The translations under genes and the position numbers were made by a program. A stretch of 64,000 nucleotides of DNA from an uncultured bacterium (lineage in GTDB: Bacteria > Omnitrophota > Gorgyraeia > Ghiorseimicrobiales > Ghiorseimicrobiaceae). Location of the stretch: positions 71,709 through 135,708 of the forward strand of contig CAJVXN010000001.1 in NCBI GenBank assembly GCA_913009335.1. Direction: 5' to 3'. Below the pieces are notes generated by a model. That model saw only the letters and a list, made by a program, of their open reading frames with translations. It was not told the origin of the DNA and searched no databases. How positions within the stretch are numbered: the stretch's first letter is position 1; every line of letters starts with the position of its first letter. Of the stretch, positions 7,192-64,000 are shown piece after piece.

Positions 7192-7578
7192 CTATTTAAA
7201 CCTTAACGCCTTTTCTATCTTATTAATTAAAGAATCTACATCAATAGGCTTGACTAAATAATCAACAACTCCTAACTTATAAGCTTTTAATTTATCCGTA
7301 TCTTTATCTAAAGCAGAAAGAATAATAATAGGGACAGTCTTGCTAACAGAGTCCTGGTTTAACATCTCGCACACATCAAGCCCTCCTATTCCGGGCATAA
7401 GGATATCCAGTAAAATAACTTCCGGCTTAAAACTGTGCACATCGTTAATGATATTCTTCGCGTTAGATAAAGCCAGGACTTCGTATTTTTCCGTAAAATC
7501 AAGGTTCATTTTTGTAATTTTACGAAAATCGTCTTCGTCATCGATTATCATTATCCTTCGTTTCTGCATTTCGGCCAC
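7192..7578 (-). CDS. Single-domain response regulator (CheY-like REC)
   Basis: IMIIDDEDDFRK...ILLDILMPGIGGLDVCEMLNQ...IIILSALDKD...YLVKP: receiver-domain acid pocket, phospho-Asp, T/S and K positions. Overlaps the upstream kinase by 41 nt. Confidence 0.85.
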   Translation of the reverse strand: MAEMQKRRIMIIDDEDDFRKITKMNLDFTEKYEVLALSNAKNIINDVHSFKPEVILLDILMPGIGGLDVCEMLNQDSVSKTVPIIILSALDKDTDKLKAYKLGVVDYLVKPIDVDSLINKIEKALRFK

Positions 7579-9766
7579 CTCCTGTAGTTTTAAAAAATAT
7601 GCTTACTTTCGTACCTATGTCTTTTTTGCTTTCTATCTCGATAATTCCGTTATGCATATCCATTATATTCTTAGTAACTGCCAAACCTAAACCGACTCCT
7701 TCACGAGGGCCTTTTGTAGTGAAAAACGCGTCGAACACCCTGGCAATATTTTCCTTTGATATACCCACACCCGTATCAACAACTTCGACAATTATAACTT
7801 TTTCCCCCGGCCTAAATTTATCATTTACTCTTCTACCCATATCCTTATCGCCAAACGCTAGCTTCTTCGAATACGTACGGATAAATACGGACCCGCTATC
7901 ACCTAAAGACTGAAAGGCATTAATGAATATATTGATAAATACCTGTTCTATCTTTCTTCTGTCTATTAAAATACGGGGTAAATTATCCGGCATATCTTTA
8001 TTGATAGTAAACTCTTTATCTTTAAACCGTTGTGTAGATAAAAGCAAAGATTCCTCTATTACGGACTTTATATCTTCCGGCGTACGGTTCACCGGGGACT
8101 GGCGTGAAAAATCAACCAAGGACCGCACTATGTCATCGGCCCTTTTAATATTGCGCTTCATCATAAGAAGAATCTCTGATCTTTCCTTATTAACGGAAAG
8201 ATTCTTTTCTAAATAATTAACATTTTGAAGTAATATTCCCAAAGGATTCTTAACTTCATGGGCCACTCCGCTTGCCAGCTGCCCTATAGCTTTTAGCTTT
8301 TCTGATTGGATAAGCTGAAATTGAGTGCTCTTTAATTCTTTGTTTACTTTGATTAATTCCTTATGTGTCCGGTCCGCATCTTCAAAGATATTTAATACAG
8401 CTTGCCTTTGTTTTTCTGATTCATCCATACTCTTTTTTAAATCTACGGTTCTCTCCTCTACCCGCTTCTCCAGCATTTGGCTATACTCTTCAATATTCTG
8501 CTTGGCTGCTTTTAACTCTTCAACCATCTTTATCTTTTGTGTAACATCTCTGGTTATATGGATAAACTGGGTTAGCTCTCCTTTTTCATTTCTTAAAGGA
8601 TAGACGCTTATCTCGGCATAGAATTTGTTGCCTTCTTTGTCAAAATGGGTATGCATTATGGAAACTGGTTTTCCTGTTTTTAGGGCCCCGATGACAGGAC
8701 AGGTATCAGATTTACAGGGTTCATCAAGGTGGTGGGTAACCTTATAGCAGGAGTTGCCCACCACCTCTTCCTCTCTAAGGCCGTTGAGCTCTAATATTTT
8801 CTTATTTGCCCAGAGTATCTTAAAATCTCTATCTATAAGCATTATCCCTTCATCAATACCCTCGGTTATTCTTTCGGTTAGCTCCTTTGCCTCCTCTAAA
8901 TCCTCTGTCCTCTGTTTAACCCTATCCTCTAACTCCGCGTTTGCCTGTTCTAATTTTCTCCGAGAGATCTTTAAATCTTGAGTCATTTTGTTGAAAGATT
9001 TAGCCAGCTGGCCTATTTCGTCATCTGATTTCTCCTCTATCACTACAGACAAATCTCCATATTTTGCTATAGCCCGGGTTACCTGCGATAATTCTAAGAC
9101 AGGTTTTACTACCATACGGCGCAAAAAAAACCAAACCGCCGCTAAACTAAATATGACCCCCAAAGTAAACAATAAAATAAGATAAATTATCCTTTTTTTG
9201 ATAAGGCTGTAGTCTGATTCTACAGAGATAACCGACGAAACGGCGGCCATGGTTTTACCTAATTCTATCTTGTGACAGGAAAGACAACTTTCTCGCGCCT
9301 TAACCGGAGTAATATATCTTATCACCCGTAAATCTTTACCCTTTATATTTACAGTCGTCTCACTCTGGAAAGGTTCTCCGGAAAGAGCCCTTTTTTCTAT
9401 CTCATCCCGGGGAAATTCCACTTCACGAGAACTATATAGCCTGGCTATCTCCGGATCTTTAAATGTCCGCGTTATATCCGGAGAATTAATTAGCCTAATA
9501 TCCAAAACATTGCTTCCACTATCCTTTTCTTTTATTCTTATTTCCTCTATTATGCTATATATCGCTTCAGGATCCGAAATACCCAAAGCCATAACCGCTA
9601 CCAATGAATCAAACAATCTCCTATTTATGCCTTCTGCCTCAGAGTATGTTTTCTCTAATAAAATATTTATCTCTGACTTAGCAATATATCCTAAGATCAC
9701 AGTCAGGCTAACAAGAAGAACAAAACCAATTATAGAAACTATTTTTGTGGATAATTTAAATTGCAT
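7538..9766 (-). CDS. Sensor histidine kinase with periplasmic CXXCH (heme c) sensor domain, HAMP, Cys-rich PAS, HisKA and HATPase_c
   Basis: 742 aa. TM1 near residues 9-28 and TM2 near IIYLILLFTLGVIFSLAAVWFFL. The periplasmic segment contains RESCLSCHKIELGK. The PAS region contains CYKVTHHLDEPCKSDTCPV. HisKA motif ASGVAHEVKNPLG. G-box GVGLGLAVTKNIMDMHNG. Confidence 0.85.
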   Translation of the reverse strand: MQFKLSTKIVSIIGFVLLVSLTVILGYIAKSEINILLEKTYSEAEGINRRLFDSLVAVMALGISDPEAIYSIIEEIRIKEKDSGSNVLDIRLINSPDITRTFKDPEIARLYSSREVEFPRDEIEKRALSGEPFQSETTVNIKGKDLRVIRYITPVKARESCLSCHKIELGKTMAAVSSVISVESDYSLIKKRIIYLILLFTLGVIFSLAAVWFFLRRMVVKPVLELSQVTRAIAKYGDLSVVIEEKSDDEIGQLAKSFNKMTQDLKISRRKLEQANAELEDRVKQRTEDLEEAKELTERITEGIDEGIMLIDRDFKILWANKKILELNGLREEEVVGNSCYKVTHHLDEPCKSDTCPVIGALKTGKPVSIMHTHFDKEGNKFYAEISVYPLRNEKGELTQFIHITRDVTQKIKMVEELKAAKQNIEEYSQMLEKRVEERTVDLKKSMDESEKQRQAVLNIFEDADRTHKELIKVNKELKSTQFQLIQSEKLKAIGQLASGVAHEVKNPLGILLQNVNYLEKNLSVNKERSEILLMMKRNIKRADDIVRSLVDFSRQSPVNRTPEDIKSVIEESLLLSTQRFKDKEFTINKDMPDNLPRILIDRRKIEQVFINIFINAFQSLGDSGSVFIRTYSKKLAFGDKDMGRRVNDKFRPGEKVIIVEVVDTGVGISKENIARVFDAFFTTKGPREGVGLGLAVTKNIMDMHNGIIEIESKKDIGTKVSIFFKTTGGGRNAETKDNDNR

Positions 9767-9781
9767 TGTTTTACTCTATAA

Positions 9782-10264
9782 TTACTTATTCTTCTCAGCA
9801 GTTACGGCTTTTTCAAACAAGGAGATCCTATCTAATTCAATGCTCACCTGCTTATTTAAATCGCTAAAATACCCTTTAAGCTTTTTTATGTGTATTTGCG
9901 TGAGAGCATCGCTTACGGAAGAGACTGTATTCAAACCCTTAATATTCAGATCATTCGTCCGTTTTATTGCCCGCAGCCATCCCGTAAGACTGATAAAAAC
10001 ATCCTCATTCAAATCATCTTTATCTATGGCGTTGAAAATATTTATCATATGAAAATAGGCATCTAACTGCGTAGTCGTCATAATGCATGAATCCCACATG
10101 CTGCTTATTAAAACTACGTCGTTGGATTTAACAAGTAAGGGTTTTAATTCTTGCGCCTCCCTAAAAAAATTGTCCCTCATTATCAAAAATGGATTTTCAA
10201 AAGCATAGAGATTAAAATTACATAATAACAATAAACTCAAAAAAATAAGGAATCTTCTTTTCAT
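9782..10264 (-). CDS. Secreted hypothetical protein (signal peptide), immediately upstream of heme-sensor kinase
   Basis: N-terminus MKRRFLIFLSLLLLCNFNLYAFE is signal-peptide-like. No recognisable domain. Confidence 0.45.
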   Translation of the reverse strand: MKRRFLIFLSLLLLCNFNLYAFENPFLIMRDNFFREAQELKPLLVKSNDVVLISSMWDSCIMTTTQLDAYFHMINIFNAIDKDDLNEDVFISLTGWLRAIKRTNDLNIKGLNTVSSVSDALTQIHIKKLKGYFSDLNKQVSIELDRISLFEKAVTAEKNK

Positions 10265-10335
10265 TTTTTCCCTCCGGGTTAAAGCTCAACCAGCCTTGTT
10301 TTTATATAAATACTCCAGTTTTATTTAAATAAGCT

Positions 10336-11865
10336 CTATATCAAATTAACCCTGGATCTTCTTAGTAAACTGTCCGCATCTTCACCTTCACTGCAAAGTG
10401 CCATACCTAAACTAAAAGTTATATCTTTTTCTAATTTTTCCTCGGCTATAAATTTTTGTATGACCTCCTTAAAACGATCCGAAATAGCCAAAACATCTTT
10501 TTTATCGACATCCGATAAGAATACCGCGATCTCATCAAAGTGGCTTACAACTAAATCGCTGCGCCTATATAAAGATGACTTTATCAACTGCTCAACCCGC
10601 GTCATTAATTGCGTTACCTGCTGCCCGAGTTTATTAAACATTTTTAGAAAATCGTCCATACGCACTACTATAATAAAGGCTGATATTTGACTTTCCAGTG
10701 CTGAATAAACCGCATCATCAAGAGCTTGTCGAAATACAAGCTCAGTACTATACCTGGGAAGAAGAAAAGAAATCTTAGTCCATTTACCAAGCTCACTATC
10801 AACCCGAATACTACCGCCATGGGCCTCAATCACTCCTTTGCTAATCGCCAAACCAAGACCGGTCCCTTTTTCTCCTTCTCCTTCAATACGTCCAAACTGC
10901 TGAAATTTACCAAATATCCTCGGTAAATCATCCTTTGAAATACCTATCCCGGTATCTAAAACAGCACATTCAATCTTCGCTGCCTGTTGGCATACATCAA
11001 TCTGCACAAAACCTTCTTTCGTAAATTTCAACGCGTTATTTACTAAGTTAGTAAAAACCTGCGTAATCTTATCCTTATCGGCATAGATTTCAATTTTTTC
11101 TTTTGGAACATTTGCTTTGAGCTCTAAGCCTTGACTTTTCGCCTTAGGCTCAAAGAAATAAACCACCTCTTTAACTATATCCTTAACATCAACCGCTTTT
11201 TTCTTAAGAGCTATATTCCCTGCTTCAATCTTGGATATATCAAGCAAGTTGTTAATCAAGCGGGTTAATCTCTCTAGATTTTGCCTCGCGATGATAAGAA
11301 TGCTTTTTTGTTGTTGATTTATTTTCCCTGTTATTTCATCTATGATCAGGCCTATAGCTTCATTCATTGTAGAAAGCGGCGTTCGCAACTCATGGGAAAC
11401 AATAAAGATAAAGTCCGACTTTACTTTATCCAGTCTTTTAAGCTCTTGATTTTTCTTGTCCAGCTCTTTATAGAGAATACGTATAGACTCATTTGTCTTA
11501 CCAAGCCCCCAGGTCTGCACGTCTAACTCTTCTTCGGCTTTTTTAAGGCTATCTTTAAGCAAAACATAACGATTAAAGATTTCCCGCAGTAATCCGGCAC
11601 CATGATTACTCAATAAAGTCCTATCCAATGACTTTATTTTAAGCAGCCTTTGCTGTATTTTATCATCCCCGGAAATATTTACTACTGAATCCACTCTCCT
11701 GCCGCCTGATATTTTTTCAACAACAGTATTTATATCCTTAGTATCCTGTTTTAGGTCCAAAACGCCTAGAATATTTATTATTTTGCTTTCAGAAAATAAC
11801 TCACGAAACTTTACCGTCATATCACGGGCGCCGATAAGCACTATATTCATTTTGGTTTTTTTCAT
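10336..11865 (-). CDS. Cytoplasmic histidine kinase with C-terminal degenerate GGDEF-like domain retaining RxxD I-site
   Basis: HisKA motif VSHELRTPLSTM. HATPase_c motifs NLVNNALKFT and GTGLGLAISKGVIEAHGG. C-terminal domain follows the GGDEF layout (RMDDFLKMFNKLG...YRRSDLVVSHFDEIAVFL...SLGMAL). The catalytic GG(D/E)EF is replaced by SHFDE, while RRSD sits 5 residues upstream like an I-site. Confidence 0.75.
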   Translation of the reverse strand: MKKTKMNIVLIGARDMTVKFRELFSESKIINILGVLDLKQDTKDINTVVEKISGGRRVDSVVNISGDDKIQQRLLKIKSLDRTLLSNHGAGLLREIFNRYVLLKDSLKKAEEELDVQTWGLGKTNESIRILYKELDKKNQELKRLDKVKSDFIFIVSHELRTPLSTMNEAIGLIIDEITGKINQQQKSILIIARQNLERLTRLINNLLDISKIEAGNIALKKKAVDVKDIVKEVVYFFEPKAKSQGLELKANVPKEKIEIYADKDKITQVFTNLVNNALKFTKEGFVQIDVCQQAAKIECAVLDTGIGISKDDLPRIFGKFQQFGRIEGEGEKGTGLGLAISKGVIEAHGGSIRVDSELGKWTKISFLLPRYSTELVFRQALDDAVYSALESQISAFIIVVRMDDFLKMFNKLGQQVTQLMTRVEQLIKSSLYRRSDLVVSHFDEIAVFLSDVDKKDVLAISDRFKEVIQKFIAEEKLEKDITFSLGMALCSEGEDADSLLRRSRVNLI

Positions 11866-11890
11866 ATCAGGTAATGTTTAAAATAACACC

Positions 11891-12283
11891 TTACAGCAGA
11901 CGCTTAACCGTCTCGAGCAATGGCGCGGCGTCGCTGGTCTTAACACAGTAATCATTCGCGCCGGCTCTCCTGGCCTCTATCGCATCGACGGCAGCAATTG
12001 AACCGGTACAGATAATAATCTTAGGCTTATGCGAACCGAAATTCTTACGAAGCTGACGGCAAACCTCAAAACCGTTAATGCCGGGCAGCATAGTATCTGT
12101 AATTACTAAATCCGGATTTTTCAACTTTGCTTTCTTAATCCCTTCTTCTCCGGTCTCAGCCGTAATAATTTTTTCATATCCGGCCTTCTTAAGAAATCGG
12201 CTAAATATCTTTCTGTCCGTTTCACTATCATCAATTATCAAAATTGTTTCATCGCTCATTTTCATCTCCTTCAATGAAGCCAC
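11891..12283 (-). CDS. Single-domain response regulator (CheY-like REC)
   Basis: ILIIDDSETDRK...LVITDTMLPGINGFEVCRQL...IIICTGS...YCVKT. Confidence 0.85.
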   Translation of the reverse strand: MASLKEMKMSDETILIIDDSETDRKIFSRFLKKAGYEKIITAETGEEGIKKAKLKNPDLVITDTMLPGINGFEVCRQLRKNFGSHKPKIIICTGSIAAVDAIEARRAGANDYCVKTSDAAPLLETVKRLL

Positions 12284-12391
12284 AATTTATGGAAGTCAAA
12301 AAACTGACATAAATTGTATGGCTGAATTGTCCCACCGAGTGTGTCAAAATTGTAAAATAGAATTTTGGCACATTTTACGAGGTGGGATAGA

Positions 12392-14362
12392 TTAAATGTC
12401 CTCATCAATAATCTTTTTTTTATCTTTCCCACCTTTACTCAGAATCTTCGGTATTGTAAAATAAAATGTGGCGCCTTTACCGGGACTGGAATCAATCCAG
12501 ATGTTACCACCGTGATCATCGATAACTCTTTTGACAATACTCAATCCGGCGCCTGTGCCCTCATATTCTTTTGCTGTATGTAGACGCTGAAAAATACTAA
12601 AAACCTTGTGATGATGCTCAGAGGCAATACCAATACCATTATCTTTGACGGAAAACTTGTGAAAATCGTCATTATCCGCATAATTAACCTCTACTCTGGG
12701 ATTCTCCTTGTTGTTCTTGGAAGAAAATTTTACCGCATTATTGATCAAGTTCAAAAAAACTTCCGTTATTTTAATGCGATCACATTTAACAATCGGAATA
12801 TCCGCCTGGACAACCAAGCGAACATTATGCGTTTTAATATCAAAATCGATACGCTCTTTTACTTCATTTATTGTCGCGTTAATATCAACGTCTTCATAAG
12901 GATTCTTAATTCTCGAAATTCGTGACAGCGCAAGCAGGTCATCAATTAGCTTATTCATGCGATGCGTACCCTCACTAATCTCTCTTAAACATTCTTTGCC
13001 ATCTTCATCGAACTTATTTATGTAATCCTCTTTAAGAAAATTCGCGAAAGCCGTAATTCCCCTTAGCGGGGCCCGTAAATCGTGGCTTGCCGTATAAACA
13101 AAACTATCCAGCTCCTTATTAGCCTCTTCCAGCAGTTTTTTCTGTTCTTCAAGCTCCGATTTTTTCTCTTCTACATTAGCCTTGGCTTTGATTAAGTTGT
13201 CTGTCATTTGGTTAAAAGAATGCGCCAACTCCCCAATCTCATCTTTTGCGCTAATCTCGGCCCTCACAGAAAGCTCGCCATTAGCAATTATGCCGGAAAT
13301 CCGTGTTAGTTCTTTAATCGGACCGGAAATAGAACGCGCGATAAGAATAGCTGCGATTACAACTATGAATAAAAGTATTAAACTAATCAATAATAACGTT
13401 TTTCGCAGCTTATCGGCTGATGCAAAAACTTCAGCTGTATCCATCTTTACCGCTATTGCCCATCTAAAAGAAGGTACATGTTTCCATGCGGACAAAACTT
13501 CCCTGCCTCGATAATCAACGGTAATGCCCGAACCGCTTTCGCCCAAAAGAGCTTTTTGTATATGCTGACTATTATCGGAGCCGATAACTTCTCTTTTTGT
13601 GAACGCGGCATGCTCATCAAATCTCAAAGGAGTAATAAACACCGCTTCATTACCCAGCCTTACTGCTATAATTGTCTCGCCGGTCCGGCCTAAACCCGTA
13701 TAATCTTTAACTAAGGAACTTACTCCCGTATTGCCCATTTGCGCGGCAATGATCCCAATAATATCCCCTCCTTTAAAAACCGGCACGGCAATAAAAAAAG
13801 CCCCTTGATTAATCTTGGGATAATATTGGAGATCGGATATTTCCAGTTCATGCGATATATTCACTCGCATGAAGACTTTCGAAAGTTGAGAATCTTTATA
13901 TTTACCCGCGTAAATCGACCCGTGAATCTTGCTCTGGTTTACAGAAAATATTATGTCACCATATGGACGAATTATAAAAAGATCGTCATATCCGGATGAT
14001 TTCTGATAATATGTTAAAAACGGCTTGTATTCCCGTTCAACAGCTATATATTCTTCGCTTTCAACCCCCTTATCAAAGGCCTGATCAAATTCTTCAATAA
14101 GCGTAACCGTATCCGACATATGCGACAATCTAAGCACGTCTTCTTTCATTTTATCAAGATATACTTTAACCTGGTTAGATTTATTCTCCGCGACAGCAAG
14201 CAGACTATTTGATACCTCCTCTTCTAAAACTAATCTGGCGCTGTTATAACTTATGTAGGTGGCTATTGATAAAGGCACCGAAGCAATAAACAAAAACCAT
14301 AAAATGAACTTAGCGGTAATGGAAATTTTTTTAAAATGCTTTATGGTCGAGACAGGCTTCAT
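12392..14362 (-). CDS. Sensor histidine kinase with periplasmic double-Cache-like domain, HAMP, HisKA, HATPase_c
   Basis: 656 aa. TM1 is FILWFLFIASVPLSIATYISY. Periplasmic region is ~280 aa. TM2 is LLLISLILLFIVVIAAILIA. HAMP follows. HisKA motif TASHDLRAPLRGI. HATPase_c motifs NLINNAVKFS and GTGAGLSIVKRVIDDHGG. Confidence 0.85.
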   Translation of the reverse strand: MKPVSTIKHFKKISITAKFILWFLFIASVPLSIATYISYNSARLVLEEEVSNSLLAVAENKSNQVKVYLDKMKEDVLRLSHMSDTVTLIEEFDQAFDKGVESEEYIAVEREYKPFLTYYQKSSGYDDLFIIRPYGDIIFSVNQSKIHGSIYAGKYKDSQLSKVFMRVNISHELEISDLQYYPKINQGAFFIAVPVFKGGDIIGIIAAQMGNTGVSSLVKDYTGLGRTGETIIAVRLGNEAVFITPLRFDEHAAFTKREVIGSDNSQHIQKALLGESGSGITVDYRGREVLSAWKHVPSFRWAIAVKMDTAEVFASADKLRKTLLLISLILLFIVVIAAILIARSISGPIKELTRISGIIANGELSVRAEISAKDEIGELAHSFNQMTDNLIKAKANVEEKKSELEEQKKLLEEANKELDSFVYTASHDLRAPLRGITAFANFLKEDYINKFDEDGKECLREISEGTHRMNKLIDDLLALSRISRIKNPYEDVDINATINEVKERIDFDIKTHNVRLVVQADIPIVKCDRIKITEVFLNLINNAVKFSSKNNKENPRVEVNYADNDDFHKFSVKDNGIGIASEHHHKVFSIFQRLHTAKEYEGTGAGLSIVKRVIDDHGGNIWIDSSPGKGATFYFTIPKILSKGGKDKKKIIDEDI

Positions 14363-14941: not shown

Positions 14942-14944
14942 TTT

Positions 14945-16426: not shown

Positions 16427-16545
16427 AAGCTAAAAACCCCCAAGAAAATCGCCTTCGGCTGATAACCTTATACGATTTTCAGTGGTATAGGAAAGTGCTT
16501 TACCTGTGCCCGTAAGGGTATACTTTCCTAGTACCATAAAAATTA

Positions 16546-18187: not shown

Positions 18188-18237
18188 TGAATTGCCGCGT
18201 AAATACTTTAGTTATTATCTCTAACGGGGTAAAACCC
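18103..18237. repeat. Inverted repeat pair bracketing start codon/leader of pseudopilin gene 17552..18187 (arms gtaaaccccgttagagata / tatctctaacggggtaaaaccc) plus internal hairpin gtcccgcctttggcgggac
   Basis: Arm 1 is at 18103-18121, inside the coding sequence for LSLTGF. Arm 2 is at 18216-18237 in the 5' UTR. In the mRNA, 5'-ccccgttagagat...AUG...atctctaacgggg-3' can pair. The same module recurs at the next two pseudopilin genes. Confidence 0.6.
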
Positions 18238-56641: not shown

Positions 56642-57910
56642 TTATCCTCTCTTTTTTCTTTGCCCCTTAGAGACAAATGAAAAATCCCTGACTCTCCCGT
56701 CAGGGTAACGCCTGCTTAAAACACCGCTCATCTTTTCTCCGTCCCATTCTCCGCGCCAGCTGACAGTCGAACCTTTTGCATTACTTTGCATTGTTTCCCA
56801 AACGACTTTCCCGTTAGCATGTACATTTTTCGTATAATTTGTAGCTAAAAAACCTTCCTGTTTCATATTATTGGAGTTAAATCGGCCATCTTCAAATGAA
56901 AGCGTATCGATTTTAATAAAACGATTTTGTAATCCGCTCAATGATGTCAATTCTATTACCCAGGCATAGCCTTCAATTTCCCGCGCCTGCTTGGCGTCCT
57001 CTAATGCCTGTTCAGCCAATTTAATCTTCCATTCATATTGCTTAGTATCCATATTTGCTTTAAGGGCTTTGTCTCTTTCGATTCTAAGCATATCTATTGT
57101 TTTATCATAGAGAGCTAAAGTTTTTTGATATTCTGACCTAAATGCACTGCTCTGGCGATAAAAATAACCGGCAATAATAACTACAACAAGAATTGTGGCG
57201 CCGGCAATAAATATATATAACGGGCGTACTTTTTTTAATCGCTGTTGATTCCTCTGCTCTTGCACGTAATCCTGGATTAAAGCCTTTATGTGTTCTGTAA
57301 ATTCTTGTGAACCTAAAATATTTTTCCGATGTAACTTCTTTTTAAAATCATTTAACTCTTTCTGATCAACATTTTCAGTATAGCCTATGAATTCTTCCTC
57401 CCGGCCGCCTAACGCACGAAAGACTTCTTCGATTTCTTCTTTCATATCCGGATGCCCTCTATGTGCCGGATCAACAAATCGCGAATAACTAGAATGCGGA
57501 TAATCCTTAGGATTATCGCATATTTTTGCCCTTATTGGATTTAAGTGCAGATGGCGCAAAAAAGGCAATATATAGTCTTTTTTCTCCGCCAAAATCGCGT
57601 TAAATCTTGCCTGAAAAAGATGCCCTTTCTTATTATATCGGCTATTGAATGCTTTGGTATATAAAGAATTGATATCATGCATAATGCTGGAGATAGAAAT
57701 ATTATTTCTTAGCTCAATAAGCATATGAATGTGCGTAGGCATTAAACAATAAGAAAAAAGCTTAAATCCGTATTGTGTCTTATAATTATTAATTAGGGAC
57801 ACGTATTCATAGAAATCGGATGCATCCACAAACAAGTTTTGGGCATAACCACTGCGTGAAGTTACGTAATAAAGGATTTTTTCTACATAAACTCTTGGTA
57901 GTCTCGGCAT
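56642..57910 (-). CDS. Membrane-anchored fusion: N-terminal IS200-like HUH (Y1 transposase/RAYT-like) domain + TM + coiled coil + C-terminal WETMQ-family periplasmic domain
   Basis: Residues 1-150 match the COG1943/Y1_Tnp family (VYYVTSRSGYAQNLF...FSYCLMPTHIHMLIE...GHLFQARFNAILAEK...LHLNPIRAKICDNPKDYPHSSYSRF). TM is LYIFIAGATILVVVIIAGYFY. The C-terminus VVWETMQSNAKGSTVSWRGEWDGEKMSGVLSRRYPDGRVRDFSFVSKG is paralogous to 58213..58899 and 60932..61378. Confidence 0.65.
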   Translation of the reverse strand: MPRLPRVYVEKILYYVTSRSGYAQNLFVDASDFYEYVSLINNYKTQYGFKLFSYCLMPTHIHMLIELRNNISISSIMHDINSLYTKAFNSRYNKKGHLFQARFNAILAEKKDYILPFLRHLHLNPIRAKICDNPKDYPHSSYSRFVDPAHRGHPDMKEEIEEVFRALGGREEEFIGYTENVDQKELNDFKKKLHRKNILGSQEFTEHIKALIQDYVQEQRNQQRLKKVRPLYIFIAGATILVVVIIAGYFYRQSSAFRSEYQKTLALYDKTIDMLRIERDKALKANMDTKQYEWKIKLAEQALEDAKQAREIEGYAWVIELTSLSGLQNRFIKIDTLSFEDGRFNSNNMKQEGFLATNYTKNVHANGKVVWETMQSNAKGSTVSWRGEWDGEKMSGVLSRRYPDGRVRDFSFVSKGQRKKRG

Positions 57911-57928
57911 ATTGCCCTCTTGCTTCTA

Positions 57929-58019
57929 TTTGCCAGGTACTACTCCTAAATCTTAAGTTTAGCTCAAAGTGCCTGGCACTTTTATGATTTTCAAAAAAAA
58001 ATCCAGGCAAATCACCTGG
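57929..58019. repeat. Palindromic (REP-like) elements in 300-nt intergenic spacer upstream of the HUH-fusion gene
   Basis: Inverted arms tgccaggtac (57931-57940) and gtgcctggca (57969-57978). A second palindrome tccaggcaaatcacctgga sits at 58002-58019. Both share a ccagg core. Confidence 0.35.
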
Positions 58020-58212
58020 ATTAATAATTCAATGTTTCGGTAATCTGCCAACCCTCTGCAAAACTATTGCAAAGGGATGCACGACTTTGCGTCCCCAGAT
58101 TACTCCGGGTTTGCCTTTATCGAACTTAAATCTAATTTTTAGAGATCGGCTATTCTTCATTAAAAGTATACCCGATTTTTTGACAATTTCAAGAGGTTAA
58201 CGAATTATTTTC

Positions 58213-58899
58213 CTAGCGAAACCACCCTTTTTTCTTCTTTGTTTTTTCTTTCTTTTGAGACTTTGCTGCCTGCTCTGGATCTTCTTTTAACTCCGGCTGA
58301 GCAATTTTAGCCTCATCCTGAGCTATTTCCACATCCGGAGCCGCTACTACCTCTACTTCTTCTATAAATTCACTGCTAACAGACTCCAGCTCTTCTACAA
58401 CAAGCTCAGGGTTCAATTCTTTCTTTGTGCTACTTACAAAAGAATAGTCTTTTACCTTATTATCAGCTAAATGTCGGCTTAATACTCCGCGCATAACGCC
58501 ATTTTCTACTTCACCCTTCCAGAACGCAAGACCTTTCTTATCGCTAGTCTGCATTGTCTCCCAAATAACTATATCTTCTCCTTTGAGACTCAATGTAAAA
58601 TTCGAAGGTAAAAAACCATCCGATGTCAGTTCTTTCGATTTAATTTGATTATCAACAAAATTCAAGGTATCATTTGTTTTACGTTTCTTCTTCTCGCTTG
58701 TCATCTGTGTAAGTGTAATTTCCCAAGTCGAACCATTAAGCTGATCTTTTACATCTTTAAGGATTTTTCTTGTTTTTTGCGCATCATTAACCTTGTTAGC
58801 AGATGCCTTTTCTGCCCAAGCGAGATTTAAAAAAATAAAAGACAAAAATATAGCTGCAATTACTAAAAAGCTCTTTTTTTTATTAAATAATACTGTCAT
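58213..58899 (-). CDS. Secreted WETMQ-family protein (paralog 2) with lysine-rich C-terminal tail
   Basis: Signal FLVIAAIFLSFIFLNLAWA. Domain LNGSTWEITLTQ...IVIWETMQTSDKKGLAFWKGEVENGVMRGVLSRHLADNKVKDYSFVSS. C-terminus KKEKTKKKKGWFR. Confidence 0.5.
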   Translation of the reverse strand: MTVLFNKKKSFLVIAAIFLSFIFLNLAWAEKASANKVNDAQKTRKILKDVKDQLNGSTWEITLTQMTSEKKKRKTNDTLNFVDNQIKSKELTSDGFLPSNFTLSLKGEDIVIWETMQTSDKKGLAFWKGEVENGVMRGVLSRHLADNKVKDYSFVSSTKKELNPELVVEELESVSSEFIEEVEVVAAPDVEIAQDEAKIAQPELKEDPEQAAKSQKKEKTKKKKGWFR

Positions 58900-58936: not shown

Positions 58937-60388
58937 CTACTCTTTAATATAGGCTTTTATTATCTTCACATCTTTTTTAGGCTTTTCATTAGAATCAACG
59001 GCGACATTATTAATTTTCTCTACTACCTCGTAACCCGAAGTAACTTCTCCGAATATAGTATGCCGATTGTTTAAATGCGGCGTTGGTTTAACGGTTATAA
59101 AAAATTGGCTCGTATTGGTGTTTGCTCCTGAGTTTGCCATAGCTAACAGCCCGGGCTTATCAAACGAAATATCGTCACTTAACTCATCCTCAAAAGGCTC
59201 GCCCCATAAAGATTCACCGCCTGAACCCGTCCCTTCGGGGTCACCTGTCTGTATCATAAAATCCTTAATCACACGGTGAAATATTATCCCGTTATAATAC
59301 CCTTTTTCAGTCAACCCAATAAAATTCTCACAAGCCTTAGGCGCAATCTCCGGAAATAGCTTTAATTCTATATTACCACTATTAGTCTCCAATACAAGCA
59401 AAGATTTCTTTTTTAATTCTTCTATTTTCAAAGCCCGCCTGTCTTCCGCCACATAATCCCTATAATTCGCGCGTTTAAGTAAATCTTCAAAATATCCCTT
59501 AATTATCTTACGTTTTTTGCCTTGAGTAAGCAAATCTTTATAATATTGTTTTTTCTTATCATTATACTTGGTAACATCCGCTCGCCTTTTATATAAAAGA
59601 CGGAAGACCGCATCTCCGTAATAAAACTTCGCGGCTATAAAACTACCCTCGTCAAAGTCAAGAATCCGATAAGCATCTTCTTTGGGTATCTTCCAAAGGT
59701 CAATTAAAGCCTCCAGAGACATTATATTTATCCAGGATGACCCCTTCTGGCCCAGAGGTTTTTTTTCATCATAAGTATCTTTCCAGAACCTAGGATTACT
59801 TTTTACTTTTTCAAGAAACTTCTGCGCATCTTCCTGATTGTCAAATTTTATATATTCACTCTCGAAAGAATTATATTGGTTTAAAAACTTCTGCTCCATT
59901 TCTTCTTCGGTTACGCTAATTTCGGGATTAGTCTTAACCTGCATAAACTTATTTATGGTAAGCAGGTCTTTAATGCGCTGTTCAAAAATATCGGCACCTT
60001 CTTTTAATTGCGTTACAACCCATATATGATAATCATCACTCTCATATTCAATATCTTTTTCGGAAAGCAGGCGTTTTATTTCTTTTTCAAGTTCATCCTG
60101 ACCTATAGCAATACCTATGTCTTTTGCCTCATGTAAAAATATTAAATTCTGCCAGGCCTCCTGTACAACTTCCTCTTCGGTTCTTTCCTCGGCAGCCTTT
60201 CCCGTGCGCGTAAAAATTAAAGCTGTTTTATAATAATAAGTGAATTCTTCGCCTGTTACGGGCCTGCCAAACGCCTCACCGACCGCGCCGGTGCTTATGC
60301 GTTCCGCTTGCGCTAAACTAAAACTATTAAAACCGCTTATCAAAAATAACCCGACTACGGGAAGTACCGATAAAATCCGTTTAATCAT
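58937..60388 (-). CDS. Periplasmic chaperone/PPIase: SurA-N-like domain fused to cyclophilin-type peptidyl-prolyl isomerase
   Basis: Signal peptide. C-terminal cyclophilin signature GYYNGIIFHRVIKDFMIQTGDPEGTGSGGESLWG...GLLAMANSGANTNTSQFFIT. The N-terminal ~300 aa are helical and SurA/trigger-factor-like. Confidence 0.75.
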   Translation of the reverse strand: MIKRILSVLPVVGLFLISGFNSFSLAQAERISTGAVGEAFGRPVTGEEFTYYYKTALIFTRTGKAAEERTEEEVVQEAWQNLIFLHEAKDIGIAIGQDELEKEIKRLLSEKDIEYESDDYHIWVVTQLKEGADIFEQRIKDLLTINKFMQVKTNPEISVTEEEMEQKFLNQYNSFESEYIKFDNQEDAQKFLEKVKSNPRFWKDTYDEKKPLGQKGSSWINIMSLEALIDLWKIPKEDAYRILDFDEGSFIAAKFYYGDAVFRLLYKRRADVTKYNDKKKQYYKDLLTQGKKRKIIKGYFEDLLKRANYRDYVAEDRRALKIEELKKKSLLVLETNSGNIELKLFPEIAPKACENFIGLTEKGYYNGIIFHRVIKDFMIQTGDPEGTGSGGESLWGEPFEDELSDDISFDKPGLLAMANSGANTNTSQFFITVKPTPHLNNRHTIFGEVTSGYEVVEKINNVAVDSNEKPKKDVKIIKAYIKE

Positions 60389-60912
60389 AATTCTTCTTCA
60401 ACAATCTTTATTTTAACGACCTTCGAAACAAGTTCACCCTTAAACGCATCCAGGCCGATTTCCTCCCCAAATACATTTTGATAAACTGCTTTAACTTCAT
60501 AGACTCCCGGCTCTTTAAAATCGAAGAAATATCTTATATTTCTTTTTCTCTCCGAAGTTATTTCATCTTTAGGATTCAATAATACAAAATAATCACTTTT
60601 AGGAAAACCGGTATCCTGAGATATTTTATAGGGAAGCGCCTCGCCCAGGGGGGAAGTTACGAGCAAATATATTTCTCTATCTTCGCTGTTGCTGTCTTTC
60701 GAATTCAGGAAAAATCTTTTGTTTACATAAACAGGCTTCTTGCCATGATTTTTTAAGGTAAAGGTGATAAAAATCGGTTCTGTTTTTTCATATTCGCTTT
60801 TATCAAAAGAAATACTCAACGCCAAATTGCCTCTTGCCGCGCACGCTCCTTGCTGGCTAAAAAAGAATAAGCCAATTATAATTAAAGCTATCCGGCTAAC
60901 CCTCAACCCCAA
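60385..60912 (-). CDS. Secreted hypothetical protein (175 aa)
   Basis: Signal IALIIIGLFFFSQQGACAARG. No motif recognised. A 4-nt overlap with the PPIase gene suggests translational coupling. Confidence 0.4.
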   Translation of the reverse strand: MGLRVSRIALIIIGLFFFSQQGACAARGNLALSISFDKSEYEKTEPIFITFTLKNHGKKPVYVNKRFFLNSKDSNSEDREIYLLVTSPLGEALPYKISQDTGFPKSDYFVLLNPKDEITSERKRNIRYFFDFKEPGVYEVKAVYQNVFGEEIGLDAFKGELVSKVVKIKIVEEEL

Positions 60913-60931: not shown

Positions 60932-61378
60932 TTATTGTTTATTGGTAAAAGAAAAATCGAATGTCCTGCCGCTATTATCTTTTTGAGTTAATACGCCCCG
61001 CATAACGCCTTCATTGATGTCCCCTCTCCAGAAAGCAAAATTATCTTTTCCGTCAACCTGCATTGTCTCCCATATTACAGTACCGTCTTCTTCGACTCTT
61101 ACGGTAAAATCCGTAGCCTCAAAACCGGCAGACTGTAAATTCTTTGAAGACATTTGACCGTCGCTAAAAATTATCACATCGCTCTCTGCGCTCCCCCCCC
61201 CGGATAAAGGTTTTACCGTTACATTCCACTGCGTACCGTTTAGCTCTTGCTTTTTAGCCGCGGATAGTTCTTTTTCCGATAAAACCTGAGCGGAAGAAAA
61301 ATTAACTATTGAAAAAATTAAACCAGCTGCAACCAATAGCATCAAAAATCGTTTCAACATAACTACCTCCTTGATCAT
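60932..61378 (-). CDS. Secreted WETMQ-family protein (paralog 1, minimal single-domain form)
   Basis: Signal LMLLVAAGLIFSIVNFSSAQ. Domain LNGTQWNVTV...VIWETMQVDGKDNFAFWRGDINEGVMRGVLTQKDNSGRTFDFSFTNK. Confidence 0.5.
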   Translation of the reverse strand: MIKEVVMLKRFLMLLVAAGLIFSIVNFSSAQVLSEKELSAAKKQELNGTQWNVTVKPLSGGGSAESDVIIFSDGQMSSKNLQSAGFEATDFTVRVEEDGTVIWETMQVDGKDNFAFWRGDINEGVMRGVLTQKDNSGRTFDFSFTNKQ

Positions 61379-61380: not shown

Positions 61381-62451
61381 TTATCTCATTATTGATTTGC
61401 CGCTATAAGTCTCCCAGGTAAGCAAATATTTTCTCACCCAGTCCACATCTTTATCATCACTCTTACTAAGCCTTAAAAAATGCCGGAAGTTCTCAATAGC
61501 CCTTTCACGATTTACTAAATATTCGGCATAAATATACCCTAAATTAAAATGCGCGTAGGCATCATCCGGGTTAATCTCTATAGCCTTCTCGAATTCCGCG
61601 ATCGCCCGCCTGTATTCCTTATTCTTCGTATAGAACACGCCTAAGTTGTAATGCATCTTAGAGGTTTGCTTAATAAGAACTTTATTCTGCCGGGCAATTT
61701 CGGAAAATTTTTTGGGCATTCTTTGTATCTCTTTTTCCAGCGCCTTATTTTTCTTAACAGCGCCGGCATAATTTTCCTTATATTCATTAAGGCTAGCATC
61801 TAAATCCTCGATTTTGGCATTTGCCCCCTGAAGGTTTTCTTTTAGCTTTGAGATATCTTTCCCGGATTTTTCCTTTAATTTATCAATATCGCTATTAGCC
61901 CGCTTAAAGCGTTTATTCAAATCGTTATTTTCTTTCTTAAGATTAGAATTTTCTTTCTTAAGTTCTTTTACAACTATCTTTTTTACGGCCCTTTCATAAT
62001 CCACCTTAAGTTTATCACGTTCTTTTTCCAGCTCTTTTTTTGTTTCAATAAACTGTTTAAATTCATCTTGTAATTGTTGATACCGGCCGGTTGAATCCTT
62101 TTTTTCGGATTTGAGTAGTTTATTTTCTGAACGCGACTCTTCTAAATAATCTTCTAATTCCTTAGCATCGGATCTTTCCCGAAGAAGCTTTTTTGTCTGC
62201 AGCAGCACATTATCACGGTCATCCATTACTAATTTGTAATCTTTATTTAAAGCGCCGTAATCATTCCTCAATTTCTGATTTTCTGTTGTAAGTCTCTTGT
62301 ATTCAGGGTCCCTGCTTTCTAATTCGTGAGTTATGTCTTTTAGCTCTTGAGAGAGACTTTGAGATTTATGAACAAAATAAATAATTCCTATGCCCGCGAC
62401 AAAAAATAGAATGGATAGACAAATTACTAATATTTTGATTTTGCTCATCAT
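61381..62451 (-). CDS. Bitopic membrane protein with long coiled coil and C-terminal TPR repeats (secretin/pilus-associated scaffold candidate)
   Basis: N-terminal TM ILVICLSILFFVAGIGIIYFV. About 220 aa of K/E-rich heptad coiled coil. C-terminal TPR-like helices NLGVFYTKNKEYRRAIAEFEKAIEINPDDAYAHFNLGYIYAEY. Confidence 0.55.
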   Translation of the reverse strand: MMSKIKILVICLSILFFVAGIGIIYFVHKSQSLSQELKDITHELESRDPEYKRLTTENQKLRNDYGALNKDYKLVMDDRDNVLLQTKKLLRERSDAKELEDYLEESRSENKLLKSEKKDSTGRYQQLQDEFKQFIETKKELEKERDKLKVDYERAVKKIVVKELKKENSNLKKENNDLNKRFKRANSDIDKLKEKSGKDISKLKENLQGANAKIEDLDASLNEYKENYAGAVKKNKALEKEIQRMPKKFSEIARQNKVLIKQTSKMHYNLGVFYTKNKEYRRAIAEFEKAIEINPDDAYAHFNLGYIYAEYLVNRERAIENFRHFLRLSKSDDKDVDWVRKYLLTWETYSGKSIMR

Positions 62452-62485
62452 TTAAGTCTCCTGTAAGTAATCATCAGTTATTGTA

Positions 62486-64000
62486 TTAGTTGTTTCTTTG
62501 AATTCCGCCATATTCACGATAAGACTTTATCCGCGTCTCCGGTGAGCCAACCGGCGCCTTGTAATCCGTTTCCTTAGTAAAAGATTCATAGCCCTTATAT
62601 TCCTTTCCGACCGTAACAAAATCACGTTCATCGCCCGTAGTCAAAGTATCTCCGCTTACAATATAAGGCGTAATCATAACCAATAATTCCGTTCTCGCGG
62701 TCGTCTGCGTACTTGACTTAAATATGTTACCTATTATGGGAATACTCCCGAAGAAAGGAACCTGCTCCGAGGAAGTAATTTCTTCTTCCTTGCGCAGACC
62801 TCCGATAATAATCGTTGAGCCATCTTTAACCAAAACCGTAGTCTCCGCGGTGGAAGTATCAATAATCGGTATCTTGTTTCCTGAGGGCGTCGTAAGGGTT
62901 GAAGTTACGCTGGAAATTTCCGGTTTTATCTTCATTGTCACATAGCCGTCATCATTGATAGTGGGTGTTACGGATAACTGAAGCCCTATATCAACGAATG
63001 TTACCTCCTCGGATACGGTGGATGTGCTTTGCCCTGTTGTAGTAGTCGTCGTGACATATGCCTGGCGTTCACCGACATGAATACGCGCTTCCTGGTTATT
63101 TATCACGGCTAATTTAGGATTAGAAAGAATACGCGTGTCTCCTAAAGTTTGAAGATAATTAATTACAGCGTCAAAATCCCTTCTATTGCCCATTATACCC
63201 ACATGCATATTTTCGCCCGGTACGGTTTTCGTAGTAGATGAATAACCGCTAAACGGATATTCATCGGCATGCGTATCTTCATCATCTATTATAAATTCCC
63301 TCGGGCTTAACGCGTCACGCGCGCCCTGAACAGCGGTAAACGGATATGAACCGAAATAAGTCGAACCGAATCTCGCGGAAATATCAAATAATCCTTCCCA
63401 TTCAACTCCCGTACTTAAAGAATCCGAAAGCTTTACCTTAATAACTTTAGCATCAATTAATACTTGTTTTGTTTTTCCGTCCAATGCCTCAATCAATGTC
63501 TCAATCTCATACATCCTATCGGGTAAAGCCTGTACAATAAGTTGATTTGAGCGCTCATCCGCCCTTATCGAGCCGACTTTCTTAGCATCCAATTGCAGTT
63601 TAAGTTTTTCCTCTACATCTTTAGCCCGGGCATATTTTAAATTGAATACACGCACCAAATTCTTCTTCTCCATTGCCACAAGGGCCGCTTGAATAACTTC
63701 AATACTATCCGGTGTATCCATAATCGTAACAGTGCCGGAGTCCGGTTCAACAAGCACTCTTCCAATGTCACTTTTTAAGGTATCGAATAAAGCAAATGCC
63801 TGCTCCGGTATGGCGTATCTTAAGCGAAAACTCTTTACCTGGCGAAGATCGGAAAACTTCTTTCCAAATAGTGCCTTATATTCATCTTCGGTCATTACAT
63901 TATAAATACCTCCCTGCTTTGTATAAGCAAGCTCATTTGACCGCAGCATAATATCAAAAATATCCTGAACTCTTACATCTTCAACCATAAGAGAAACTCT
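62486..64000 (-). CDS. Secretin (GspD/PilQ family), 5'-partial at window edge
   Basis: C-terminal secretin domain ILSNPKLAVINNQEARIHVGE...VDIGLQLSVTPTINDDGYVTMKIKPEISSV...TTVLVKDGSTIIIGGL...VPFFGSIPIIGNIFKS...TELLVMITPYIV. The reading frame stays open upstream of the annotated Met at 63988 to the window end (...RVSLMVEDVRVQD). Confidence 0.85.
   Translation of the reverse strand, partial: RVSLMVEDVRVQDIFDIMLRSNELAYTKQGGIYNVMTEDEYKALFGKKFSDLRQVKSFRLRYAIPEQAFALFDTLKSDIGRVLVEPDSGTVTIMDTPDSIEVIQAALVAMEKKNLVRVFNLKYARAKDVEEKLKLQLDAKKVGSIRADERSNQLIVQALPDRMYEIETLIEALDGKTKQVLIDAKVIKVKLSDSLSTGVEWEGLFDISARFGSTYFGSYPFTAVQGARDALSPREFIIDDEDTHADEYPFSGYSSTTKTVPGENMHVGIMGNRRDFDAVINYLQTLGDTRILSNPKLAVINNQEARIHVGERQAYVTTTTTTGQSTSTVSEEVTFVDIGLQLSVTPTINDDGYVTMKIKPEISSVTSTLTTPSGNKIPIIDTSTAETTVLVKDGSTIIIGGLRKEEEITSSEQVPFFGSIPIIGNIFKSSTQTTARTELLVMITPYIVSGDTLTTGDERDFVTVGKEYKGYESFTKETDYKAPVGSPETRIKSYREYGGIQRNN

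Follow-up and report, generated by a model that had tools for sequence, protein, structure and literature searches.

Layout and extent of the locus

The DNA analyzed here, a 64,000-nt stretch (the window) of a metagenome-assembled genome (MAG) from the phylum Omnitrophota, contains a block of ca. 57 kb (positions 7192-64000) in which the gene for a giant secreted protein adjoins a module of F-type ATPase genes, followed by a cluster resembling a type II secretion system (T2SS). All 33 consecutive open reading frames (ORFs) of this block, from a secretin gene (62486 to the window edge) to a REC-domain gene (7192-7578), lie on the minus strand, as an earlier sequence-only reading had described, and GC skew is negative over the entire block. 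Genes overlap or stand at most 20 nt apart at 18 of the 32 intergenic junctions; the other 14 gaps are longer, eight of them 71-127 nt, so the earlier description of mostly overlaps or gaps under 20 nt fits the former and not the latter. The block has a single long spacer, at 57911-58212, which measures 302 nt rather than the 300 nt given before. The REC gene at 7192 had been taken as the end of the unidirectional block, but the minus-strand run continues to 4106 through a 121-aa ORF and a VTT-PAP2-LssY_C gene.

Gene identities were assigned with Pfam and NCBIfam models, and these bore out the earlier assignments with small corrections to the peptidase, the GspL-like protein, and the secretin, which is cut by the window end. 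Scans for promoters and terminators (7-27 kb, 27.9-30.4 kb, and 55.6-64 kb) gave no excess over shuffled sequences except for the terminator of a riboswitch, described below. These scans neither prove nor refute a single operon. Between the modules, where strong terminators had been named as evidence against a single unit, there is one conditional terminator, with no enrichment elsewhere in the scanned ranges.

The F-type ATPase module

Between the giant gene and the secretion cluster lie the following genes:

29379-30212, minus strand: p277, 277 aa, with a signal peptide, a periplasmic part, a coiled coil, and a C-terminal transmembrane (TM) helix; between the giant gene and epsilon
29138-29371, minus strand: F-type epsilon, 77 aa, N-terminal beta-sandwich only (Pfam ATP-synt_DE_N, 1.7e-12 over the whole protein)
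28880-29098, minus strand: c-like ring subunit (weak Pfam ATP-synt_C match, 1.6e-3)
28012-28752, minus strand: b-delta fusion, a peripheral stalk with an N-terminal TM anchor (Pfam ATP-synt_B and OSCP in one protein)
26535-28019, minus strand: F-type alpha (NCBIfam atpA equivalog, 536.6 against a cutoff of 484)
25673-26518, minus strand: F-type gamma (Pfam ATP-synt, 6e-32)
24277-25683, minus strand: F-type beta, the catalytic subunit (NCBIfam atpD equivalog, 560.9 against a cutoff of 462.9)

Alpha and beta resemble those of a canonical F1. Alpha carries GDRLTGKT161 and the arginine finger SVSRIG354, and its best matches in the PDB are canonical F1 alpha subunits. Beta, which probably starts at 25683 to give a protein of 468 aa, 14 codons inside a 482-aa ORF, has a Walker A motif (GGAALGKS164), the catalytic glutamate (GER195), and a Walker B motif (LLFVDN253). 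Its PDB matches rank canonical F1 beta first (492 bits) and place the G1 beta of Mycoplasma mobile (343 bits) below all canonical betas. Over its 468 aa beta is 100% identical to a protein from a 'Candidatus Omnitrophica' MAG (GCA_011051015.1). Its best 120 homologs are 75-100% identical; those with a named source are almost all from Omnitrophota, with one labelled Deltaproteobacteria. More than 100 homologs fall at 75-83% identity, which fits the Omnitrophota non-respiratory clade.

Three families of specialized F-type ATPases were tried as homes for these subunits and rejected. The alt_F1F0 models of the N-ATPase gave 491 bits against cutoffs of 752 and 750, and the extra membrane genes are absent. 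The models for the Mycoplasma gliding proteins MMOB1660/1670 gave 437 against 850 and 392 against 600 bits, and those for MSC_0618/0619 gave 395 against 570 and 303 against 520 bits.

The membrane part of the module departs from the canonical pattern. The c subunit of the window contains no Asp or Glu anywhere; its RNP loop is at residue 35 and Gln55 stands at +20, which, 20 residues past the loop arginine as in the c subunits of E. coli and I. tartaricus, we take to be the position of the ion-binding carboxylate. Of 52 related loci, 24 have Q at this position and 20 have E, while the other eight have V, A, T, F, or L; the carboxylate is thus gone in 32 (62%). Because the most divergent loci carry E, the carboxylate is probably ancestral and appears to have been lost repeatedly. 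The c-like proteins form a small, distinct family (46 clusters at E <=1e-3 among 1.84 billion representatives) whose members likewise carry E, Q, or another residue and lack the glycine motif of canonical helix 1. Some members (P0182 and P0189) are tandem duplications of 138-140 aa with four helices and Glu kept in both halves. The 127-nt spacer between the c and b-delta genes (28753-28879) contains a 9-bp GC-rich palindromic hairpin (28856-28876) that could set the ratio of c to F1 expression.

We found no match to ATP-synt_A (subunit a) in a Pfam scan of the window proteins. A hidden Markov model built from the a subunits of two canonical operons found no homolog within 10 kb in 79 related loci, nor is there an unexplained ORF with at least four TM helices beside the F-type module in these loci. 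The protein p277, found between giant gene and epsilon in roughly 40% of loci, has a single TM helix, which ruled it out as a candidate for a divergent subunit a; its single-sequence AlphaFold2 model is poor, with a predicted local distance difference test score (pLDDT) of 56. The b-delta fusion is kept in all loci. Two loci, L061 (6359-11371) and L067 (6884-11389), encode b/delta, alpha, gamma, and beta without epsilon or c, directly after a pair of secretin and TPR genes. The lack of a gene for a, the lost carboxylate in c, the reduction of epsilon to its N-terminal domain, and the lineages with neither epsilon nor c together argue against ion translocation and for a motor that hydrolyzes ATP. 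We therefore infer that the module is an ATP-hydrolyzing motor that is apparently uncoupled from ions.

It is very improbable that these genes encode an ordinary ATP synthase whose subunit a lies elsewhere in the genome and whose position beside secretion genes is meaningless. Such a synthase would account for the scores above the atpA and atpD cutoffs, the full set of catalytic motifs, and the c subunits that retain Glu, but not for a window c subunit without any carboxylate, the absence of one at the ion-binding position in most loci, the missing C-terminal domain of epsilon, or the surroundings of 79 loci without a gene for a. Two published surveys also speak against it. In Seymour et al. 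2023 (PMC10066038), a 'respiratory' clade of Omnitrophota F-type ATPases is set apart from a 'symbiotic' clade. According to a 2026 preprint, 70-99% of genomes of the class Gorgyraeia outside one order encode V/A-type ATPase subunits; the preprint also detected alpha and beta in 125 of 176 complete genomes and gamma rarely, which it read as an incomplete F1Fo.

Conservation of the gene order in Omnitrophota

To compare the locus with its relatives, we scanned one genome per GTDB species for beta, which gave 77 Omnitrophota-type loci at 56-82% identity and three canonical atp operons at <=50%. Related loci, 79 in all and numbered here with the prefix L, were annotated by BLASTP with the window proteins. 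Their order is near-invariant: giant, [p277], epsilon-c-b/delta-alpha-gamma-beta, [MshEN], GspE-GspF-peptidase-GspG-pseudopilins-GspK-PilMN-PilO, [p160]. Among the 58 loci whose sequence runs 3 kb or more downstream, GspE comes after beta in 57, and this context holds down to 56% beta identity, with the canonical operons at <=50%. Of the 35 loci whose sequence extends 7 kb or more upstream, 30 have a giant homolog in front of epsilon or p277. Genes called independently in L002, L003, and L095 have the same order as the window. In L095 the island ends at the p160 homolog, with SmpB next.

Two loci that were reached via homologs of a small secreted protein, sm148 (see below), extend the picture past the window. 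L098 and L099 read AAA_22 (GspA/ExeA-like), a weak GspC-like gene, secretin, TPR, an sm148-like gene, a protein of 178-180 aa, SurA/cyclophilin, [Y1_Tnp], a p150-like gene, and the giant. Their order suggests that the island of the window probably begins ca. 3 kb past its right edge. Other loci are permuted. L061 has the order SurA/cyclophilin, AAA_22, GspC-like, secretin, TPR, b/delta-alpha-gamma-beta, p228, HUH422, p150, giant, and in L067 the secretin module is followed directly by b/delta-alpha-gamma-beta, MshEN, GspE, and the remaining cluster genes. That the modules stay together in permuted loci is the strongest comparative argument for a functional unit. In L091, glycosyltransferase genes stand upstream of HUH422 in place of the secretin module.

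The near-invariant order, the secretin module before the giant in other loci, and the joining of modules where they are rearranged largely support one conserved island with a variable periphery, in that two-component genes are not universal. Synteny in relatives, the check that the sequence-only reading had called for, thus shows the modules to be co-inherited, with the F-type and gsp genes occurring together. Its proposal of a single functional island holds for the order kept across loci and for the rearranged L061 and L067, but not for the two-component genes or for L091, where the secretin stands apart.

The T2SS-like cluster

The genes downstream of beta are:

23825-24280, minus strand: MshEN, a stand-alone GspE N-domain protein (Pfam MshEN; two 23-aa motifs at residues 8 and 37)
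21602-23821, minus strand: GspE-type ATPase with MshEN, T2SSE, and PilZ domains (Pfam T2SSE 2e-130, MshEN, PilZ)
20334-21551, minus strand: GspF platform protein (Pfam T2SSF; best NCBIfam model GspF, under cutoff)
19386-20330, minus strand: secreted zinc metallopeptidase of the MA clan (Pfam Peptidase_MA_2; HEVAH147)
14384-19371, minus strand: six genes encoding GspG, two minor pseudopilins (one GspJ-like), GspK, a PilM-PilN fusion, and PilO/GspM (Pfam and NCBIfam)

The stop codon of beta overlaps the start codon of MshEN (-4 nt), and GspE begins 3 nt after the MshEN gene. GspG passes its model (TIGR01710, 141.7 against a cutoff of 88.85) and has the G|FTLIE motif. The GspJ, GspK, and GspM models are the best ones for their proteins, all under cutoff. 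The machine thus appears, by its model matches, to be T2SS-like; of the T2SS proposed earlier, GspG passes its cutoff and T2SS models rank first for GspD, E, F, J, K, and M, while these others stay below theirs. The gene called GspL-like is a PilM-PilN fusion with pilM as its best model. GspC was not found in the window; weak T2SSC matches beside the secretin in L061, L098, and L099 suggest that it may lie just past the window edge.

The 'peptidase' is not a prepilin peptidase but a secreted HExxH metallopeptidase. It lies between GspF and GspG in most related loci and may process the long pseudopilin leaders or the giant protein. The leaders of the three pseudopilins (18859-19371, 18293-18751, and 17552-18187, minus strand) are 26-42 aa long, far longer than typical T2SS leaders, and end in (A/T)(G/L)SLTG|FTL(I/F/V)E; the start codon of GspG may be miscalled.

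A different view of the machine follows from Seymour et al. 2023 (PMC10066038), who found, in all classes of Omnitrophota, F-type ATPase clusters of a non-respiratory kind next to clusters for type-4a pili (within 10 kb in 57 of 66 contigs), placed alpha among the Mycoplasma type-2 and type-3 ATPases, and proposed a role in attachment to host cells. The coupling to an F1-like ATPase, which the sequence-only reading had believed undescribed, was therefore already on record. Co-location of beta with pilus-type genes within 10 kb also holds in the window, where beta overlaps MshEN, and in 57 of 58 loci. On this account the cluster would build a dynamic type-4a pilus for attachment or motility on hosts, the F-type ATPase would power motility as in the Mycoplasma type 2, and the giant would be a separate adhesin. 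The PilM_2, PilN, and PilO domains are in keeping with a pilus, as is the narrow difference between the NCBIfam scores of the ATPase (GspE 574 and PilB 546 bits, both under cutoff). We nevertheless consider it unlikely. The major pilin matches GspG and not PilA, the minor components fit GspJ, GspK, and GspM best, and neither PilD/GspO nor PilT was found among the window proteins with Pfam and NCBIfam, nor any second, PilT-like ATPase. Alpha and beta score far under the Mycoplasma cutoffs and over those of atpA and atpD, in agreement with the PDB ranking. The giant, as the immediate upstream neighbor in most loci (30 of 35), is not an incidental one.

The giant protein and its riboswitch-led leader genes

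Upstream of the F-type module are the giant gene and the genes and signals that precede it:

58165-58192, minus strand: promoter-like site TTGAAA-16-TATACT (consensus scan, 10 of 12 matches; pattern match only)
58035-58124, minus strand: c-di-GMP-I-type riboswitch aptamer, GGC variant model (Rfam RF03167)
57991-58022, minus strand: intrinsic terminator with a 10-bp stem (hairpin 58000-58022) and a T8 U-run, the riboswitch expression platform
56642-57910, minus strand: HUH422, 422 aa, with a cytoplasmic Y1_Tnp (HUH) domain, TM helix, coiled coil, and periplasmic WETMQ domain (Pfam Y1_Tnp 1e-12)
56187-56639, minus strand: p150, a small secreted protein of 150 aa whose homologs adjoin giant genes
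55730-56185, minus strand: putative lipoprotein with MORN repeats (Pfam MORN_2; lipobox-like MISC at residue 19)
30301-55716, minus strand: giant secreted protein, an ORF of 8471 aa

The giant protein consists of a signal peptide, a conserved 400-aa N-domain, ca. 75 Kre9/KNH-like Ig repeats, and a conserved 750-aa C-domain. It has only one hydrophobic segment (residues 19-50), followed by AFA|R as in a Sec-type signal peptide; the protein is rich in D, T, and S and has a period of 95-100 aa. The Pfam scan returned only weak matches to Kre9_KNH and the Reelin subrepeat and none to SecA, so that, with a single hydrophobic segment, the protein is not of the 'Archaeovorin' type. Its last 1500 aa, which include the C-domain, are 44% identical to the L003 protein and 36% to the L002 protein, which identifies these as orthologs rather than unrelated large genes. 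Homologs vary in length (3070 aa in L002, 5877 in L003, 5484 in L095, and 7753 in L098). A secreted or surface role is plausible from the signal peptide and Ig repeats, which fits the earlier proposal of a T2SS substrate or adhesin as far as it goes. Within the gene, three super-repeats of ca. 2.05 kb (40207-45983) contain stretches of 95-98% DNA identity; if the assembly is from short reads, their copy number, and hence the length of the giant, may be uncertain.

A search for homologs of the giant N-domain yielded two fragments, and a pattern scan of metagenome contigs then gave ten loci. In all ten, and in L061, the gene immediately before the giant homolog encodes a p150 homolog. A HUH422 homolog stands before p150 and the giant in L061, in L099, and in seven of the eight metagenome loci whose sequence extends past p150. 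No homolog of the MORN protein was found in any related locus examined. HUH422 carries an HIH60 motif; its cytoplasmic IS200/RAYT-like HUH domain is joined via the TM helix and coiled coil to a periplasmic barrel, a ToxR-like topology.

The 302-nt spacer holds a riboswitch that is presumed to bind cyclic di-GMP (c-di-GMP). The window aptamer scores 59.1 bits with RF03167 against a gathering score of 59 (E 2e-11), and the unit of aptamer and terminator also precedes the HUH422 homolog in L085, L087, L090, L091, L092, and L099, seven loci with the window. The first gene behind the riboswitch is HUH422 in every case. The aptamer thus reaches the Rfam gathering score, and its pairing with a downstream intrinsic terminator is the usual transcriptional design of c-di-GMP-I (GEMM-I) riboswitches, from which these differ in that six of the seven copies fit the GGC variant model best, with c-di-GMP as the putative ligand. 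The exception, L099, matches the canonical model RF01051 (63.3 bits against a gathering score of 35) and has its own hairpin and U-run downstream of the aptamer. Across the six loci that can be aligned, both arms of the terminator stem vary. In L061 the Rfam scan detected no riboswitch. Minimum free energy (MFE) folding gave an antiterminator that uses the 3' strand of the aptamer in the window and L090, and not in the five other loci. A riboswitch-led operon of HUH-domain membrane protein, p150, and giant is undescribed in the searchable literature.

The riboswitch bears on the possibility that the modules are functionally independent and merely co-regulated by c-di-GMP, with their order kept by descent or shared transcription and no physical coupling. 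It sets a separate transcription start within the block, and the periphery of the island is variable (two-component genes, the MORN gene, p277, and the position of the secretin module), both of which such independence would allow. We judge it distinctly unlikely all the same, because in the permuted L061 and L067 the F-type module adjoins secretin, giant, or T2SS genes and never unrelated ones, and because the adjacency of beta and GspE persists to the most divergent betas, with start and stop codons of beta and MshEN overlapping.

Secretin, chaperone, and WETMQ-domain proteins

The right end of the window encodes the secretin and chaperone module:

62486-64000, minus strand: GspD-like secretin (Pfam Secretin 4e-50 and Secretin_N), N-terminus beyond the window edge
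61381-62451, minus strand: membrane-anchored coiled-coil/TPR protein (Pfam TPR matches)
60932-61378, minus strand: sm148, small secreted protein with a 'WETMQ' beta-barrel domain, paralog of p228 and the HUH422 C-terminus
60385-60912, minus strand: sm175, small secreted protein of 175 aa with a signal-peptide-like N-terminus
58937-60388, minus strand: periplasmic chaperone with a SurA-like N-domain and a cyclophilin peptidyl-prolyl isomerase (PPIase) (Pfam Pro_isomerase 1.6e-54, weak SurA_N_2/SurA_N_3)
58213-58899, minus strand: p228, secreted WETMQ-domain protein of 228 aa, sharing the domain of sm148 and HUH422

The best NCBIfam model for the secretin is GspD (244 bits, under cutoff), with the PilQ model close behind. 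It shares 45-48% identity with its counterparts in L061 and L067 and is 504 aa long in the window, compared with 636-669 aa in relatives; since its ORF has no upstream stop codon inside the window, it is truncated by the window end. The TPR gene directly follows the secretin in L061, L067, L098, and L099 as it does here. The SurA/cyclophilin chaperone lies upstream of the giants in L098 and L099 and adjoins the F-type module in L061 and L067. Proteins of 173-180 aa stand at the position of sm175 in L096-L099, a match by size and place alone.

Three paralogous WETMQ domains of ca. 100 aa, all periplasmic and on the minus strand (60932-61378, 58213-58899, and 56642-57070), share the motif WETMQ...FW(K/R)GE...GVL(S/T) and match no Pfam family. 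None of the 47 homologs of sm148 has a Pfam domain, and those with a named source are hypothetical proteins of Omnitrophota. The AlphaFold2 model of sm148 (pLDDT 87) shows a helix and an 8-stranded barrel, for which Foldseek found only generic calycin-like barrels in the PDB and no match with E below 0.01. A p228 homolog directly follows beta in L061.

Regulatory genes and c-di-GMP-binding domains

The downstream end of the block encodes a regulatory tail:

7192-14362, minus strand: dCache-HAMP histidine kinase, REC protein, histidine kinase with a degenerate GGDEF domain, p160, HAMP-PAS histidine kinase, and REC protein (Pfam)

The 160-aa secreted protein p160 normally follows PilO directly in relatives. 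The two-component genes vary in position and are present in a minority of related loci; the sensor kinases that had been taken as inputs to the island are thus present in the window, but lineage-variable and often absent, as in L095, where the island ends at p160. The degenerate GGDEF domain has lost its GGDEF motif and keeps RRSD..HFDE, an RxxD I-site. The HAMP-PAS kinase has a periplasmic CxxCH (CLSCH161) and a sub-threshold Tll0287-like match, which make the heme sensor proposed earlier plausible, although they do not establish it. Further potential c-di-GMP sites lie in the secretion cluster: the stand-alone MshEN keeps both binding motifs, whereas the MshEN motif of GspE itself is degenerate, and the PilZ domain of GspE keeps RxxxR (RVFSR627) and DxSxxG (DISAGG664).

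Interpretation and comparison with known systems

We consider it fairly probable, at roughly 60%, that the locus is one copy of a phylum-wide, c-di-GMP-gated island for surface display and secretion, with an ion-uncoupled F-type ATPase as accessory motor. The giant would be exported by Sec, kept export-competent by the periplasmic chaperones, moved through the secretin by the machine of GspE, F, G-K, and L/M-like proteins, and presented on the cell surface as a long adhesin or coat with which the cell attaches to hosts or prey. Unable to couple to an ion gradient, the F-type module would act as an ATP-hydrolyzing rotary or mechanical motor, anchored by b-delta and, where present, the c-ring, and would serve the secretion platform, to which beta, MshEN, and GspE would tie it by translational coupling. 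C-di-GMP may act on RNA via the riboswitch and on protein via the stand-alone MshEN, the PilZ domain of GspE, and the degenerate GGDEF with its I-site, and the three sensor kinases could give inputs in the window lineage.

Several points weigh against this interpretation. The giant would be a substrate of ca. 0.9 MDa (from its length), to our knowledge far above any characterized T2SS substrate, and no experiment or structural model joins the F-type module physically to the T2SS-like machine or the giant. The predicted alpha and beta pass ordinary atpA and atpD equivalog cutoffs, the c subunits of 20 of 52 loci keep the carboxylate, and a gene for subunit a could be present at another place in the genome, since the negative result covers the surroundings of the loci. 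No giant homolog is recognizable upstream of the F-type module in five of 35 loci, the secretin module, as annotated, does not adjoin the giant in L091, and MFE folding leaves the ON or OFF direction of the riboswitch undecided.

A narrower proposal, that the F-type ATPase is the dedicated, ATP-driven rotary motor of a T2SS-like machine deploying a giant Ig-repeat adhesin, is tentative, and we would not bet on it. If true, it would mean a second, independent recruitment of a rotary ATPase to protein secretion, parallel to FliH/I/J in type III, and an ATP-powered counterpart of the ion-driven envelope motors in bacteria with little membrane potential. FliI and FliJ are relatives of F/V-ATPase alpha/beta and gamma that were recruited to protein export. 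The sets of b-delta, alpha, gamma, and beta in L061 and L067, without epsilon and c, look like the same solution as FliH-FliI-FliJ, from which they differ in that FliI is a highly diverged homohexamer, whereas the present alpha3beta3 is near-canonical and its partner T2SS-like rather than a type III system. The idea of FliH as b plus delta goes back to Pallen et al. 2006, as cited in PMC2881411.

Other F-type ATPases are similar in part. With canonical F1Fo ATP synthase the module shares the catalytic motifs of alpha and beta (P-loops, catalytic Glu, Arg finger), and it differs in having no subunit a at the loci and, in the window c, Gln55 in place of the ion-binding carboxylate. The N-ATPase (Dibrova et al. 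2010, PMC2881411) is likewise a non-synthesizing F-type enzyme, with a b-delta fusion and the same cyclic gene order beta-epsilon-...-c-b-alpha-gamma, but has a, AtpQ, AtpR, and a c with the full Na+-binding set, all absent at the window locus. In function, the nearest analogue is the Mycoplasma Type 3 F1-like X0 ATPase of the MIB-MIP system (PMC12994834), which is experimentally required for a surface system. Like the Type 2 G1-ATPase of M. mobile gliding (PMC8406192), it is F1-derived, has no proton channel, is genetically tied to a surface system, and occurs in a reduced, host-dependent bacterium; one product of the Type 3 cluster also has the topology of p277, combining a signal peptide with TM helices at the C-terminus. 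The Mycoplasma clusters differ in having no c, b, or delta genes, unrelated membrane partners, and no T2SS, and the window alpha and beta are closer to canonical F1.

With classical Gsp systems the secretion cluster shares GspD, E, F, and G and J-like, K, L-like, and M-like components, with GspC- and GspA-like genes beside the secretin in relatives. It differs in that most components score under equivalog cutoffs, GspE carries MshEN and PilZ, prepilin leaders are 26-42 aa, an MA-clan peptidase is embedded, and the locus has no prepilin peptidase.

Parts of this arrangement are already published, namely the pairing of F-ATPase with pilus-type genes and that of giant with T2SS-like genes. For the former, the loci of Seymour et al. 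(PMC10066038) are the same thing as ours, non-respiratory alpha and beta beside a pilus/T2SS-type cluster. They are presented differently: giant ORFs were treated, in the passages searched, as a separate trait, whereas here the giant is the immediate neighbor, and the machine was called a type-4a pilus with alpha grouped with Mycoplasma types, whereas we find it T2SS-like with canonical-type alpha and beta. Their paper uses none of the words proton, riboswitch, c-di-GMP, and secretin. For the latter, West-Roberts et al. 2023 (bioRxiv 10.1101/2023.11.21.568195) described conserved T2SS-like loci, PPIase, and pilZ genes around Omnitrophota giant genes, with no mention of ATP synthase or riboswitch. 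Common to both are gspD/E/F-type genes, a conserved PPIase before the giant, and PilZ/c-di-GMP links. Their giants have many TM segments and SecA-like domains, with a Rotamase_2 PPIase and small pilZ genes downstream, whereas the window has a soluble, secreted Ig-repeat giant, a cyclophilin PPIase, and GspE/F downstream, with the F-type module between. New here are the finding that giant, F-type module, and T2SS-like cluster all adjoin; the anatomy of an a-less F-type module with the c carboxylate lost in most loci and the catalytic motifs intact; the c-di-GMP riboswitch and terminator of the 302-nt spacer, kept in seven loci; and an outline of the island as a whole.

The Omnitrophota, ultra-small bacteria of wide distribution, are believed to attach to other cells or to prey on them. 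The island appears to gather hardware for attachment, a giant surface protein with its export route, chaperones, and c-di-GMP control. Should the ATPase perform mechanical work in secretion or display, this would be one of few natural cases of an ATP synthase put to a new use. The conserved gene set, inactivated c-ring, and riboswitch offer concrete handles for tests, in the Velamenicoccus archaeovorus enrichment culture or by reconstitution.

Flanking genes

Two features lie beyond the downstream end of the island. Between it and the LssY_C gene, a plus-strand ORF of 106 aa (6393-6713) matches only the C-terminal part of a molybdopterin-binding domain and is probably a gene remnant. Outside the island, at 108-3945 on the plus strand, are genes for a pyridine-nucleotide-disulphide oxidoreductase and an 891-aa formate-dehydrogenase-like molybdopterin enzyme with NuoG-type Fe-S domains, which fit the fermentative or acetogenic metabolism reported for the phylum.

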